A DNA stretch of 64,000 bases from Escherichia coli (lineage in GTDB: Bacteria; Pseudomonadota; Gammaproteobacteria; Enterobacterales; Enterobacteriaceae), in the NCBI RefSeq assembly GCF_001677475.2, contig NZ_CP015229.1; one strand, given 5' to 3'. The notes under the pieces were generated by a model. The model ran no database searches and was not told the origin of the DNA. It saw nothing but the letters and a program-made list of their open reading frames with translations. The position numbers were made by a program, and so were the translations under genes. The stretch's first letter is position 1. Every line of letters starts with the position of its first letter. Shown one piece after another: positions 42,963 through 50,787 of this stretch.

Positions 42963-44018
42963 ATGAAAAGGAATTTATTATCTTCCGCTATTATAGTCGC
43001 CATCATGGCCCTCGGTCTGACGGGTTGTGATGATAAAAAAGCCGAAACAGAAACTCCCCCGCCCGCCAATAGTCAACCTGCCGCTCCAGCTCCTGAAGCG
43101 AAACCTACTGAAGCTCCCGTTGCAAAAGCAGAAGCTAAACCTGAAACGCCTGCGCAACCGGTGGTCGATGAACAAGCGGTTTTCGACGAAAAAATGGATG
43201 TCTATATTAAGTGCTACAACAAGTTACAGATCCCTGTACAGAGCAGTCTGGCGCGTTATGCTGACTGGCTGAAAGATTTTAAACAGGGGCCTACCGGTGA
43301 AGAGCGTACTGTTTATGGCATCTACGGCATTAGTGAATCCAGCCTATCTGAGTGTGAAAAAGGCGTAAAAAGTGCTGTGGCGTTAACGCCTGCGCTGCAA
43401 CCAATTGATGGCGTGGCGGTGAGTTATATCGATGCTGCCGTGGCGTTGGGTAATACCATTAACGAAATGGATAAATATTACACCCAGGAAAATTATAAAG
43501 ACGATGCGTTTGCGAAAGGGAAAACGCTGCACCAGACATTCTTAAAAAATCTGGAAGCCTTTGAACCTGTAGCAGAATCTTATCATGCGGCGATTCAGGA
43601 AATTAATGATAAGCGTCAGCTTGCGGAACTGAAAAATATTGAACAAAGAGAAGGGAAAACATTCCACTACTACTCTCTGGCAGTCATGATTTCAGCGAAA
43701 CAAATTAATAACCTGATATCGCAAGATAAGTTTGATGTTGATGCGGCAATGAAGAAAGTCTCTGAACTGGAAACGCTGGTGGCGCAGGCCAAAGAAGCGG
43801 ATAAAGGCGGTATGAATTTCTCGTTCATTAATTCGGCAGACCAGTATCAACTCGAGGCTAAAAAATATGTTCGCCGCGTCAGAGATAAAGTTCCGTACTC
43901 TGACTGGGATAAAGAGCAACTTCAGGATGCAAACACAAGCTGGATGGTCGACGACTCTTTCCCGAGAGCATTACGCGAGTACAACGAAATGGTCGATGAT
44001 TATAATCGCCTGCGTTAA
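42963..44018 (+). CDS. yiiG: Lipoprotein YiiG (DUF3829 family)
   Basis: 351 aa; lipobox LGLTGC; Pro/Ala/Glu-rich linker. Confidence 0.9.
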   Translation: MKRNLLSSAIIVAIMALGLTGCDDKKAETETPPPANSQPAAPAPEAKPTEAPVAKAEAKPETPAQPVVDEQAVFDEKMDVYIKCYNKLQIPVQSSLARYADWLKDFKQGPTGEERTVYGIYGISESSLSECEKGVKSAVALTPALQPIDGVAVSYIDAAVALGNTINEMDKYYTQENYKDDAFAKGKTLHQTFLKNLEAFEPVAESYHAAIQEINDKRQLAELKNIEQREGKTFHYYSLAVMISAKQINNLISQDKFDVDAAMKKVSELETLVAQAKEADKGGMNFSFINSADQYQLEAKKYVRRVRDKVPYSDWDKEQLQDANTSWMVDDSFPRALREYNEMVDDYNRLR

Positions 44019-44046
44019 ACGTTTTTGTTTTTGCTGTGAAATACAA

Positions 44047-44081
44047 GGTCGGATGTGGCGTAAACGCCTTATCCGACCTAC
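44047..44081. repeat. REP element
   Basis: ggtcggatgtggcgtaaacgccttatccgacctac. Confidence 0.75.
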
Positions 44082-44119
44082 ACGTCATTAAGCCGTGTCA
44101 GCTGTGGATCCGACAACAT

Positions 44120-44631
44120 TCACCCCTCGCGAAGTAACGCCATAAACCCTTCATACCCCGTTAGCCCGACAATAGTTTCCGCCGAATGCTGACACAGGAC
44201 GCTGGCAAGATAGCTGAATATTTTTAACTCGTGACGCGCATCGGCGGCGGCGCAGGCGATCAAGACATGGTTAATGACTTCGTTATTCACCTCAACTGGT
44301 TGGGCGAGGGTAATAAAAAATCCACGAAAACGTCGCTCCTGTTCGCTCCAGCAATTTCGCCATCGCTGGCTTTCCAGTCAATGGCCTGCGCTTTGCGGGC
44401 GAACAACACAAAGGGCTGTTTTACGCAGGCGCTTTTACCGTGCGGCACGGCGATGCCGGAACCAAATCCCGTGGAGTGCATTTTTTCGCGCAGCAGCAGG
44501 GTTTGCAGGAACTGGTGTTAGTCGGTGATAAAACCGTTTTGTAACGCCATTGTCGCCAACTGCTTCAGAATGGAATAAGCGCCATTGCCCTGAATATTCA
44601 GGTCAATACAGCTTGCAGTAAGAGCTGCCAT
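44120..44631 (-). pseudogene. Disrupted PTS EIIA (fructose/mannitol/nitrogen type) gene
   Basis: Minus-strand translation gives EIIA-like blocks (LREKMHSTGFGSGIAVPHGK; LIACAAADARHELKIFSYLASVL) but with an in-frame TAA after ...NGFITD and a frame change after ...PSPNQ. Confidence 0.65.
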
Positions 44632-45108
44632 TAATCGAACTCCATGAAAAAATATTTCAGTTAATTGTAACGGCGGGGCGGGTTTGTGATGAGCGCGGAT
44701 ATGTCGTGAAGTCGTGACAATATAAAGCAGAGTGAAGGATAAATTTTGCGGGGTAAGGCACATAGTGATTGGTAAAATAAATGTTGTGAATAAAAATTAA
44801 TTCTTTAATGATTTTATGAATGTTTAACTGTCGCGGATATTTTGCTGCAACGTTATTTATATTTGTGGCTTATGAGTCAGCGTGAATCATATCTAATATT
44901 TTTTACGATATTTAGTTAAAAACGGCACTATTGTTATATTCCTCACGTTCCAGGAAATCAGCGGATTTACTCATATTATGCAGCGGGATACTATCCATCG
45001 GCCTGCTGAAGTTGGATTAAAAATTCGAAAGTGCACACCTTATATTTCTCTATATGCGTATTCCTTTTGGAAAGCGTAGGGTCTCTTTTATTTCAGGGAA
45101 CGTAAATA

Positions 45109-46503
45109 ATGAAAAAATCGACATTATCTTTAGCCATCGGTTTATTATTGGCATGTAGTACCGGAATGGCAAAAACACAGCATTTAACGCTGGAACAACG
45201 CATGGCATTGCTGGAAGAACGCCTGGAAGCGGCAGAAATGCGGGCAGCAAAAGCAGAGAGCCAGGTTAAACAGCTGCAGACACAACAAGCCGCTGAGATC
45301 CGCGAAATTAAGACTGCCCAGGGCAATACGCCGGTAAATGGACAGGCAACGGCGGAATCTGCAAAGAAAAATTCCACCTCACCTAATCTTTTGCTCTCAG
45401 GTTATGGCGATTTAAAAATCTACGGCGACGTAGAATTTAATATGGATGCGGAAAGTAATCATGGCCTGCTGGCAATGACCAACGCTGATGTGAATAGCGA
45501 TCCCACTAATGAACAGTGGAATCTCAATGGTCGTATTCTGTTAGGTTTTGATGGTATGCGAAAACTGGATAATGGTTATTTCGCCGGGTTCTCCGCACAA
45601 CCGCTGGGGGACATGCACGGTTCAGTAAATATCGATGATGCGGTATTCTTCTTTGGCAAAGAAAACGACTGGAAGGTCAAAGTAGGCCGTTTTGAAGCCT
45701 ACGATATGTTCCCGCTGAATCAGGATACCTTTGTTGAACATTCCGGTAATACTGCGAACGATCTTTATGACGATGGCAGCGGTTATATCTATATGATGAA
45801 AGAGGGCCGCGGGCGCTCTAACGCTGGCGGTAATTTCCTCGTCAGCAAACAACTTGATAACTGGTATTTTGAATTAAACACGTTACTTGAAGACGGAACA
45901 TCTTTATATAATGATGGTAATTATCATGGACGCGATATGGAGCAGCAGAAAAATGTTGCTTATCTGCGTCCGGTAATTGCCTGGTCGCCGACGGAAGAAT
46001 TCACCGTTTCCGCAGCGATGGAAGCGAACGTGGTAAATAATGCTTATGGTTATACCGATAGCAAGGGTAATTTTGTCGATCAGTCCGATCGTACCGGCTA
46101 TGGTATGAGCATGACCTGGAATGGCCTGAAAACGGATCCGGAAAATGGTGTCGTGGTTAATCTTAATACCGCCTATTTAGATGCTAATAATGAGAAAGAC
46201 TTCACTGCCGGGATTAACGCGCTGTGGAAACGTTTCGAGCTGGGTTATATCTACGCGCACAATAAGATTGATGAATTCAGCGGTGTAGTTTGTGATAACG
46301 ACTGCTGGATTGATGATGAAGGGACGTACACCATTCACACCATTCATGCGTCTTATCAGTTCGCTAATGTGATGGATATGGAGAACTTTAATATTTACCT
46401 CGGGACGTATTACTCCATTCTGGATAGCGACGGTGATAAAAAACACGGTGATGATACTGATGACCGTTACGGCGCACGCGTTCGCTTTAAATACTTCTTC
46501 TGA
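45109..46503 (+). CDS. Putative outer-membrane beta-barrel (porin-like) protein with N-terminal coiled coil
   Basis: 464 aa; signal peptide MKKSTLSLAIGLLLACSTGMA; about 50-residue heptad coiled coil; alternating-residue beta-strand region rich in Y/G/N/D; C-terminal ...FKYFF; family not assignable by eye. Confidence 0.75.
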   Translation: MKKSTLSLAIGLLLACSTGMAKTQHLTLEQRMALLEERLEAAEMRAAKAESQVKQLQTQQAAEIREIKTAQGNTPVNGQATAESAKKNSTSPNLLLSGYGDLKIYGDVEFNMDAESNHGLLAMTNADVNSDPTNEQWNLNGRILLGFDGMRKLDNGYFAGFSAQPLGDMHGSVNIDDAVFFFGKENDWKVKVGRFEAYDMFPLNQDTFVEHSGNTANDLYDDGSGYIYMMKEGRGRSNAGGNFLVSKQLDNWYFELNTLLEDGTSLYNDGNYHGRDMEQQKNVAYLRPVIAWSPTEEFTVSAAMEANVVNNAYGYTDSKGNFVDQSDRTGYGMSMTWNGLKTDPENGVVVNLNTAYLDANNEKDFTAGINALWKRFELGYIYAHNKIDEFSGVVCDNDCWIDDEGTYTIHTIHASYQFANVMDMENFNIYLGTYYSILDSDGDKKHGDDTDDRYGARVRFKYFF

Positions 46504-46543
46504 TGAAGTCGCGGTGCTGGATATTTTCCGGCACCGCAACTCA

Positions 46544-46858
46544 TTAAGGCAGGTAAAACACTTCTTGCAGCTCGCTACTGACTGGGCTGTTATCCGGGTT
46601 AGCTGGCATAACGTCGGTCATATATTTCCACCAACGTTGGCAAACATCAGTACTGGCTACCGCATTCCACCGTTCTTCAGATTCAATCTCTACCGTGGCA
46701 AACAGCAGATTACGCGCTTTGTCGAGGTAAATGGTGTAGTTATGCGCACCGTGAGATTTCAACACTGCTTCCAGTTCCGGCCAGATGGGATTATGCCGAC
46801 GCTGATACTCTTCGTGGGCGTCGGGGTTAACCTGCATGACAAAGGCTTTGCGGATCAT
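46544..46858 (-). CDS. rhaM: L-rhamnose mutarotase
   Basis: 104 aa; matches RhaM. Confidence 0.92.
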
Positions 46859-46867
46859 GTTTGCTCC

Positions 46868-47692
46868 TTACAGCGCCAGCGCACTGGCTAGTGGTGTAAC
46901 GCCGAAGCGCTTGCCGAGCGCTATCAACTCTTCACGGTTGATGGTCTGTTTCATGCCGCCCATCGAATAAACCTTCACTAATACTTGTGCTGATTTTTCT
47001 GCGGTGTCGATTAAACCGAATGTTTCATCCAGCGTCGGCCCGCTGCCGAAGACGCCGTGGAAGGGCCACAACACCAGCGAATGTTTTTGCATTTCTTGTG
47101 CGGTCGCCTGGCCGATTTCGTCCGTGCCGGGCACCATCCACGGCAGAATGCCAACGCCATCCGGGAACACTACCAGACACTCGGTGCTGCCTTCCCACAG
47201 TTGGCGAGTAAAGACCGCGGTGTCGTTTTCCAGTACGTAGGTAAGGGCGATCAGGTTGGTGGCGTGGCAGTGCATGATCACCCGATCTTTACCGTTGGTG
47301 GCTTTAATGCGCTCGCAGTGGGAAAGGAAGTGAGCCGGAAGTTCGGAAGTGGGGACGGCTTCGTTGGTTAATCCCCAGAGAATATGGTAGCCCGCGCCGT
47401 CGCTGTCGACTTTTACGACGCCTAAGTTAGCCGCAGGATCAAGCTGGACGTTACGGAAGAATTTGCCGGAGCCGGTGACAATAAACGGTGTATTTGCCAG
47501 TAAAGGCATGGGCTGGCTGAGCGGAATATAGCGTGGTTGTGGGTGGAAGTTGTCGTGATAAAGCGCGATATCGGCGTCATCCAGGCGCAGCGTCAGGTTG
47601 CCGCCGTTGCGCTCGTCCCAGCCTTTCAGCCAGGCATCGGTGGTGGCTTTGATCATTCCCTGGACAAACCAGGACTGGGTAATGTTTTGCAT
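46868..47692 (-). CDS. rhaD: Rhamnulose-1-phosphate aldolase
   Basis: 274 aa from ATG at 47692 ([25 protein letters not shown]...); ORF track 298 aa is over-extended. Confidence 0.95.
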
Positions 47693-47735
47693 GTTCTGTG
47701 TTCCTGTAAATTCGGTGTTGTCAGATGCACGACCC

Positions 47736-47771
47736 GTAGGCCGGATAAGGCGCTCGCGCCGCATCCGGCAG
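47736..47771. repeat. REP element between rhaA and rhaD
   Basis: gtaggccggataaggcgctcgcgccgcatccggcag. Confidence 0.75.
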
Positions 47772-47774
47772 TGT

Positions 47775-50787
<3,013 letters not shown>

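Follow-up and report, generated by a model that had tools for sequence, protein, structure and literature searches.

A deleted frv operon beside an intact RafY-family porin gene between yiiG and rhaM in Escherichia coli

The interval at positions 44120-46503 of the window, the 64,000-nucleotide stretch of E. coli DNA analysed here, very probably holds two unrelated things side by side, namely the dead remains of the native frv operon and an intact gene for a porin of the RafY family. It is ordinary variation between E. coli strains. As stated in the preliminary description, yiiG and rhaM flank the interval, and its features were placed as follows.

42963-44018, plus strand: yiiG (DUF3829 family), the left flank; an open reading frame whose homologue is annotated yiiG in GF43, O157 and K-12
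44038-44081, no strand: one palindromic element of the REP type, located after yiiG and before the frvR tail
44120-44355, minus strand: all that is left of frvR, its final 236 nt (78 codons plus stop), which lack a start of their own
44355/44356, no strand: deletion junction frvR'/'frvA, from BLAST break points against O157 and K-12 and the junction alignment
44356-44631, minus strand: frvA 5' remnant (PTS fructose-type EIIA), codons 1-92 of 148
44518-44520, minus strand: nonsense codon 38 of frvA, TCA (Ser) to TAA, from codon comparison
44632-45108, no strand: 477-nt spacer (35.6% G+C) from which frvA and the porin gene diverge
44901-44947, plus strand: upstream block conserved with Citrobacter, from alignment and a BLAST search of the spacer against loci L007-L009
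45109-46503, plus strand: intact RafY-family glycoporin gene ("rafY2"; RefSeq "carbohydrate porin"), 464 aa
46501-46546, no strand: strong hairpin where the porin gene and rhaM converge, between their stop codons
46544-46858, minus strand: rhaM (L-rhamnose mutarotase), the right flank; an open reading frame annotated rhaM in the compared loci

At the left border, yiiG was 96-98% identical in nucleotide sequence to its homologues in the comparison genomes. The REP-type element gave a sub-threshold match to Rfam naRNA4 (REP-derived; 34.8 bits, E 8e-4), the only match obtained from Rfam, and it is absent from strain GF43, where the alignment left a 46-nt gap opposite it. At the right border, the hairpin had a minimum free energy of -29.2 kcal/mol (z -6.6), and none of 200 shuffled sequences folded as well; it is likely a bidirectional terminator.

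The frvRXBA genes encode a fructose-like PTS system of unknown substrate. In K-12, frvR-frvX-frvB-frvA occupies the site and the porin gene is absent, so the content of the window differs from that of K-12, as had been claimed. The minus-strand EIIA-like frame described as broken by an in-frame TAA and a frame change was found with both features; it starts at 44631, and the TAA lies at 44520-44518 and the frame change at 44355/44356. Its description as a disrupted EIIA gene was correct up to the frame change, where the broken gene is frvA, but not past it, where the sequence is the 3' end of another gene, frvR. The translation of the first piece aligned residue for residue with FrvA of K-12 and O157, and its nucleotide sequence is colinear with, and about 95% identical to, frvA of both. 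It matched NF007389 at positions 1-37 (51.8 bits) and 51-94 (80.8 bits) of 148, short of the 151-bit cut-off for full-length FrvA, and is a pseudogene of the FrvA family and not a functional member. The second piece matched NF007366, "putative frv operon regulatory protein", at positions 532-586 of 586 (78.7 bits, E 3.3e-22), a remnant well below the full 586 positions and 426-bit cut-off of FrvR; it aligned with O157 frvR (positions 1572-1807 of that locus, L002), and its frame-2 translation matched the FrvR C-terminus.

Both lesions could be located from these alignments, the stop at codon 38 and the junction at 44355/44356. Relative to O157, 4,193 bp are missing (L002 1808-6000), which took the 3' end of frvA, frvB, frvX, and most of frvR and left the fragments fused out of frame. 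The sequence at the junction, ...GCTCCAGCAAT/TTCGCCATCGC..., is identical in strain GF43, in which RefSeq labels both frv pieces partial pseudogenes. Among 5,426 complete E. coli genomes, the junction (exact string CGCTCCAGCAATTTCGCCATCGC) was shared by one, that of GF43. Codon 38 is TCA in O157, K-12, and GF43, and TAA is specific to the window sequence. One internal deletion of about 4.2 kb left frvA codon 92 fused out of frame to the final 236 nt of frvR, and the change of Ser38 to a stop arose in the frvA stub later. A 9-bp TCACGCAAT-type repeat (TCCAGCAAT) was present on both sides of the deletion in the junction alignment; recombination between these direct repeats was rejected as a simple cause because the junction falls 7 nt past the copy in frvA. 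Compared with K-12 frvRXBA, the window keeps orthologues of frvA codons 1-92 and of the last 78 codons of frvR, but the deletion, the out-of-frame fusion, and the nonsense codon make them non-functional, and Frv function cannot remain in this strain. That the locus is partly decayed was thus rightly recognized.

The interval was then compared across E. coli. The porin was full length in 2,557 of the 5,426 complete genomes (about 47%), including BL21(DE3) and O157:H7. In all three loci inspected (O157:H7, BL21(DE3), and 2021CK-01784), it sits between intact frvRXBA, on the frvA side, and rhaM. About 1,376 genomes carry both porin and frv by count; by subtraction, about 1,180 have the porin without frvA and about 2,800 have frvRXBA without the porin. 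E. coli of the EC-1639 type has the porin and lacks every frv gene. E. coli has lost the frv genes on at least two occasions, by complete deletion in the EC-1639 type and by the rare internal deletion described here. Outside the species, Citrobacter, Klebsiella, and Pseudocitrobacter also carry the porin in this fdhD-rhaM interval, with no frv genes in those loci.

These data bear on the original interpretation of the site, according to which a different, partly decayed PTS sugar-uptake locus consisting of the EIIA gene and the porin gene had replaced frvRXBA. The broken EIIA frame and the state of K-12, which has frvRXBA and no porin at the site, are consistent with such a replacement. However, the EIIA piece is orthologous frvA itself and not part of a different locus, the piece adjoining it is the frvR tail, and the porin gene stands next to intact frvRXBA in the three inspected loci, both being present in some 1,376 genomes. 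Replacement by a foreign locus, refuted by the frvA and frvR identities, the junction alignment, and the coexistence in O157, retains virtually no probability.

An alternative is that the porin is the outer-membrane part of the Frv system, with a control region shared with frvA, and that the window copy is an orphan heading for decay. Coupling of this kind is suggested by the single 477-nt spacer common to the divergent porin and frvA genes wherever both are found in E. coli (about 1,376 genomes). In contrast, the approximately 1,180 genomes that keep the porin without frvA, the approximately 2,800 with frvRXBA and no porin, and the three genera with the porin and no frv in the same interval all argue against it, as does the window copy, which is one residue off the common allele and has a dN/dS of 0.04. 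We consider this explanation improbable. The porin is independent of frv, being kept where frv is lost and present in genera without it, and dN/dS values of 0.04-0.14 point to purifying selection on its gene where frv is gone.

Assignment of the 464-aa protein to the RafY family was based on Pfam PF16966 (Porin_8), which it matched with an E value of 3.7e-154 over residues 104-464 (model positions 1-372 of 372) and which all 58 aligned relatives matched as well. The protein is therefore an outer-membrane sugar porin, and its earlier description as a membrane protein was borne out. No NCBIfam model matched it, and a PDB sequence search returned chance hits only (E about 1). It differs from WP_000749944.1 (RefSeq "carbohydrate porin") by one residue, A69T (99.8% identity). 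The latter, "rafY2" of O157:H7, and the BL21(DE3) orthologue are the same gene at the same site, with 98.7-99.8% protein identity, from which the window is distinguished by A69T (versus WP_000749944.1) and its deleted frv neighbour. For comparison with RafY, the place of the pRSD2 protein was taken by porins linked to raf operons in E. coli records, both plasmid and chromosomal (L005 and L006); these follow regulator, alpha-galactosidase, MFS, and GH32 genes in rafR-rafA-rafB-rafD clusters. The window porin was 77.6% identical to them without gaps, with 464 aa in each. RafY of raffinose plasmids and islands (PF16966; TCDB 1.B.15) thus has the same length and the same layout of leader, coiled coil, and barrel, whereas the window porin departs from it in the signal peptide and in about one residue in five, and its gene is located on the chromosome, between frvA and rhaM, unlinked to rafRABD. 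The window interval contains no raf genes; RafY is typically linked to them, but membership of the protein family does not depend on it.

The signal peptide, N-terminal heptad coiled coil, and beta-barrel-like C-terminal region ending in Phe noted earlier in this protein are all present and were delimited as follows.

45109-45171, plus strand: signal peptide, residues 1-21 (MKKSTLSLAIGLLLACSTGMA/KT), read from the sequence, with a putative cleavage site
45190-45327, plus strand: periplasmic heptad coiled coil at residues 28-73; the residues that come next, 74-99, are a low-confidence linker
45406-46500, plus strand: beta-barrel domain, residues 100-464, made up of 16 long strands, the fifth and sixth of which are connected by a long loop (195-240)

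The leader consists of MKK and a hydrophobic stretch, with a helix at residues 3-18 in the model. A lipoprotein leader (LLAC, residues 13-16) was considered and rejected, since Citrobacter, Klebsiella, and RafY share the A/KT junction but not Cys16. Residues 28-73 form a single long helix in the AF2 model (pLDDT about 86), and the heptad a and d positions are hydrophobic in 11 of 16 slots over residues 22-77. Pfam Sugarporin_N (PF11471) gave a non-significant E value of 0.06 for this protein; among 58 family members, E was at most 0.001 in 10 and at most 0.1 in 26, the best being 5.9e-7. The C-terminus, ...RFKYFF, is aromatic. In its outer-membrane beta-barrel of 16 predicted strands, its putatively cleavable signal peptide, and its C-terminal aromatic residue, the protein conforms to the RafY family, for which 16 strands have also been predicted in the literature (TC 1.B.15; PMC4827864).

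The fold is predicted to be a 16-stranded porin barrel with a periplasmic coiled coil like those of ScrY and DcaP. The nearest solved folds to the model were OprP (PDB 2o4v), VhChiP (5mdo), and DcaP of Acinetobacter baumannii (6eus), with ScrY and LamB farther away. All three are 16-stranded trimeric porins, but the likeness is one of fold and not of family, with 12% sequence identity and with phosphate, chitosugars, and dicarboxylates, respectively, as their substrates. The protein might instead be a substrate-specific, 18-stranded sugar porin of the LamB/ScrY type. ScrY (PDB 1a0s) and LamB are likewise outer-membrane sugar channels, the predicted N-terminal coiled coil is comparable to that of ScrY (Sugarporin_N, E 0.06 for this protein), and RafY clustered nearest the sugar porin family in TCDB (PMC4827864). 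The protein did not qualify for that family (PF02264; TC 1.B.3) by LamB profile and 18-stranded barrel, nor for the OprB carbohydrate porins by profile or closest fold, and a LamB/ScrY-type porin is thus very improbable. The proposed ScrY-like architecture holds for an outer-membrane sugar porin with a coiled coil resembling that of ScrY but not for the family, which is RafY.

As a RafY-type porin, the protein would be exported by way of its Sec signal peptide, with cleavage behind Ala21, and its 16-stranded barrel would be inserted into the outer membrane. A trimer is the probable assembly, judging from RafY and the nearest folds. In DcaP, which is 16-stranded and trimeric, an N-terminal coiled coil stabilises the oligomer (bioRxiv 10.1101/306035), and the 46-residue N-terminal helix of the window porin may form a coiled coil in the periplasm with a similar stabilising effect, as proposed for DcaP and ScrY. 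RafY is a glycoporin for maltose, sucrose, and raffinose, and the O157:H7 homologue of rafY has been named rafY2 (PMC4809568); RafY permits diffusion of raffinose, sucrose, and maltodextrins and behaves as a general diffusion pore in bilayers (PMC4809568, PMC4827864). Because of the 77.6% identity to RafY, we infer that the window porin is a wide diffusion channel for di- to oligosaccharides (raffinose, sucrose, maltodextrins) at low concentration, although the 22% divergence could alter its selectivity. The literature searched contained no experimental or functional study of this chromosomal RafY paralogue.

The AT-rich spacer upstream of the porin gene, previously put at about 470 nt, measured 477 nt and was 94-96% identical to its counterparts in O157, BL21, and 2021CK. 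A CRP-like sequence, TGTTATATTCCTCACG (TGTTA-N6-TCACG), occurs at 44932-44947 within the block conserved with Citrobacter; by our estimate, chance alone would yield about 0.2 sites of this kind, and it is a candidate regulatory site only. No convincing sigma-70 promoter was found upstream of the gene, with three promoter-like hits against 5.2 expected from shuffled sequence, so that expression of the porin is unproven. Silencing of this AT-rich region could also occur. Porin remnants were not found in K-12, where the 150 nt that separate rhaM from the shared sequence upstream of frvA match nothing in the porin region.

The genes next to the porin vary among genera. In Klebsiella sp. B345, a LacI-type regulator, a GH36 alpha-galactosidase, a LacY-type permease, and the porin stand next to rhaM, which the porin directly adjoins there as it does in Citrobacter. 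The porin could accordingly be the last survivor of an ancestral rha-adjacent raf operon (rafR-rafA-rafB-porin), providing residual entry of raffinose or alpha-galactosides that feeds LacY or MelB. Besides these raf-like genes at the orthologous site, the link of rafY2 and lacY to raffinose oxidation in O157:H7 (PMC4809568) favours such an origin. However, GntR/PTS EIIC/GH4 genes lie beside the porin in Pseudocitrobacter, LacI/MFS_2/beta-helix genes in K. grimontii, and nothing more than an HTH-cupin regulator in Citrobacter, and no remnants of rafA or rafB were found in the 477-nt spacer of the window. The raf arrangement is thus one of several and need not be ancestral; descent from a raf operon is possible but less likely than not.

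For the most part, these results matter little beyond annotation; they correct the misreading of an internal frv deletion as a replacement locus and assign the 464-aa protein to the RafY family. It is mildly useful to know that about 47% of complete E. coli genomes, but not K-12, carry a porin of the RafY type. A broader and rather unlikely proposal is that the porin is a fixed anchor of the fdhD-rhaM interval in Escherichia, Citrobacter, Klebsiella, and Pseudocitrobacter, beside which the sugar module has been swapped (frv PTS, raf, GH4-PTS, MFS/beta-helix, or none), and that its own role is an unrecognised route of oligosaccharide entry. If so, CRP-controlled entry of plant oligosaccharides would be one candidate role, suggested by the TGTTA-N6-TCACG block. 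The porin could also bear on the permeability of the outer membrane to oligosaccharides, and possibly to drugs, in strains other than K-12. If it has a conserved role of its own, its persistence in strains that lost frv would point to a general route of oligosaccharide entry in about half of E. coli, missed by physiology based on K-12.

The features reported for the yiiG-rhaM interval in the preliminary description were borne out both by ORF mapping and by reading the sequence itself.

Features of the yiiG-rhaM interval
42963-44018, plus strand: yiiG
44038-44081: one REP-type palindrome, lying after yiiG and before the frvR tail (Rfam naRNA4 match below threshold)
between 44120 and 44763, minus strand: three short ORFs
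44632-45108: AT-rich gap (477 nt, 35.6% G+C)
45109-46503, plus strand: porin ORF of 464 codons
46544-46858, minus strand: rhaM

There is a strong hairpin between the convergent stop codons of the porin gene and rhaM (-29.2 kcal/mol, z -6.6). The short ORFs had been described as one disrupted EIIA frame. In the NCBIfam scan, this was correct for the ORFs at 44518-44763 and 44287-44481, which corresponded to FrvA profile positions 1-37 and 51-94, respectively, but not for the ORF at 44120-44290, which had no EIIA match and represented the very end of FrvR (C-terminal positions 532-586 of 586). When the window was compared by BLAST with its orthologous loci in O157:H7 (L002) and K-12 (L004), a single sharp break appeared at 44355/44356. 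The sequence to its right was colinear with frvA from the start codon to codon 92, and that to its left with the final 236 nt of frvR; 4,193 bp of the O157 locus (L002 1808-6000), comprising the frvA 3' end, frvB, frvX, and approximately 85% of frvR, were missing. Since 236 is not divisible by three, the frvA/frvR fusion is out of frame, and the frame change noted earlier is this deletion junction. The in-frame TAA is frvA codon 38, which is TCA in O157, K-12, and strain GF43. A 9-bp repeat, TCCAGCAAT, was present on both sides of the junction; however, simple repeat-mediated deletion was ruled out as the mechanism because the joint is 7 nt past the frvA copy.

Using a 160-nt probe across the junction, we found this internal frv deletion in one of 5,426 complete E. 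coli genomes, that of GF43, whose joint was identical to that of the window and whose frvA and frvR pieces are already annotated as partial pseudogenes in RefSeq. The REP element at 44038-44081 faced a 46-nt gap in the GF43 alignment, being absent from an otherwise identical arrangement. As neither the TAA nor the REP element occurs in GF43, the deletion came first, and the nonsense change and the REP difference arose afterwards or in a different lineage. A large "hypothetical protein" gene (L001 1-1707) was located directly upstream of yiiG in GF43, unlike in the window, O157, K-12, and EC-1639 (the loci reaching that far), where fdhD was close to yiiG. The best matches to 36000-44000 were split by similar extra genes ("hypothetical protein" and "ATP-binding protein"), and the maximum identity of this region among complete E. 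coli genomes was 97.4%. Compared over 41977-50500 with six E. coli loci (GF43, O157, EC-1639, K-12, 2021CK-01784, and BL21), identity was mosaic: 95-98% for the flanking fdhD, yiiG, and rhaDAB, up to 99.5% for the porin gene and 99.4% for rhaM, and only 87-91.5% for the frvR tail. This suggests that the window comes from a divergent lineage whose porin-rhaM segment has recombined.

Residues 104-464 of the porin spanned the whole Pfam model PF16966 (Porin-like glycoporin RafY; E 3.7e-154). Compared with WP_000749944.1, which RefSeq calls "carbohydrate porin" and which GF43, EC-1639, and 2021CK-01784 encode, A69T was the sole difference, and identity was 98.7% with the O157:H7 and BL21(DE3) proteins and 77.6% over 464 gapless aligned residues with the porin closing the rafR-rafA-rafB-rafD cluster of an E. 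coli plasmid and chromosomal island. The dN/dS values against these relatives (0.04-0.14) indicated that the gene is under purifying selection rather than decaying. As O157:H7 has one matching place, the rafY homologue named rafY2 in that strain (PMC4809568) is the counterpart of this gene. A functional study of the porin in E. coli was not found in the literature searched. The porin and the frv remnant are both of known kinds, nothing in the interval is left unexplained, and all that the window contributes is a private nonsense codon and the A69T substitution.

A PDB search detected no solved structure by sequence, and an AlphaFold2 model was built from 58 homologues collected in two protein searches (mean pLDDT 80.4, most of the barrel >90; pTM 0.71). 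The model comprised a leader helix, a single long helix (residues 28-73), a low-confidence linker (74-99), and 16 long beta-strands. Strands 5 and 6 were joined by a 46-residue loop (195-240), located where classical porins have their constriction loop. Fold comparison ranked OprP (rank 1, 24.1), Omp-Pst1 (2, 23.4), Omp32 (3, 23.2), VhChiP (5, 22.5), PorB (6, 22.5), and DcaP (9, 22.3) ahead of the 18-stranded ScrY (14, 17.9) and LamB (15, 17.7). Sixteen strands are also predicted for the RafY family by TCDB (PMC4827864). The suggested resemblance to ScrY therefore does not extend to the barrel but holds for the N-terminal extension, in which 11 of 16 heptad a/d positions were hydrophobic; Pfam Sugarporin_N reached only E 0.06 with the porin but E<=0.001 with 10 of the 58 relatives, and the structural neighbour DcaP is a 16-stranded trimer, its oligomer being stabilised by an N-terminal coiled coil (bioRxiv 10.1101/306035).

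The porin would be exported by Sec with cleavage after Ala21, inserted by BAM through its C-terminal ...RFKYFF, and assembled as a 16-stranded channel in trimeric form, which a three-stranded coiled coil would hold together in the periplasm. A lipoprotein leader is disfavoured because Cys16 is not conserved in relatives, whereas the A|KT site is. As reported for RafY, the pore may be wide and allow non-saturable entry of di- to oligosaccharides. A promoter scan upstream of the porin gene gave nothing over background. The upstream block at 44901-44947 was conserved in E. coli and Citrobacter and contained TGTTATATTCCTCACG (44932-44947), a candidate CRP site with two mismatches to the consensus, offered as a lead only; it is alternatively readable as a TGnTATATT extended -10.

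The full-length porin gene was present in 2,557 of the 5,426 genomes, at least 80% of frvRXBA in 4,185, and frvA-5', spacer, porin, and rhaM as one colinear block in 1,377. By subtraction, and hence approximately, about 1,376 genomes carried both (e.g., O157:H7, BL21(DE3), and 2021CK-01784), about 2,800 frv without the porin (e.g., K-12), and about 1,180 the porin without frv (e.g., EC-1639), indicating that the two assort independently. In this last group, exemplified by EC-1639, frvRXBA was cleanly absent, the gap running from where yiiG ends to a point shortly upstream of frvA; two different deletions imply that frv was lost at least twice. In the porin-carrying EC-1639 (L003 2379-3044) and 2021CK-01784 (L011 111-752), the annotation lists yiiG as a pseudogene, truncated or frameshifted, indicating that the whole interval decays repeatedly. 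In K-12, 150 AT-rich nt (L004 6426-6575) with no match in porin-bearing loci separate rhaM from the shared region upstream of frvA, and the 150 nt upstream of its frvA were only 75% identical to those of the window. K-12 may either have lost the porin gene or never have had it.

In Citrobacter spp. and C. rodentium, a porin of 81-85% identity adjoined rhaM, preceded by just an HTH-cupin regulator and azlCD. The same site in Klebsiella sp. B345 held a LacI-type regulator, a GH36 alpha-galactosidase, and a LacY-type permease, then the porin, while a GntR/PTS EIIC/GH4 module in Pseudocitrobacter and a LacI/MFS_2/beta-helix module in K. grimontii separated the porin from rhaM. At a different locus in Buttiauxella (L014 228-8395), a RafY-family porin closed an ABC transporter/GH13/GH130/DUF1861 cluster, indicating that the family also serves sugar systems besides raf and PTS. 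None of these porin loci contained frv genes, so the porin was rejected as a component of the frv system. The raf-linked state of the locus may or may not be ancestral. The absence of frv from these loci implies that the porin has long resided in the fdhD-rhaM interval while the sugar modules around it change, and it is a widespread non-K-12 gene in E. coli.
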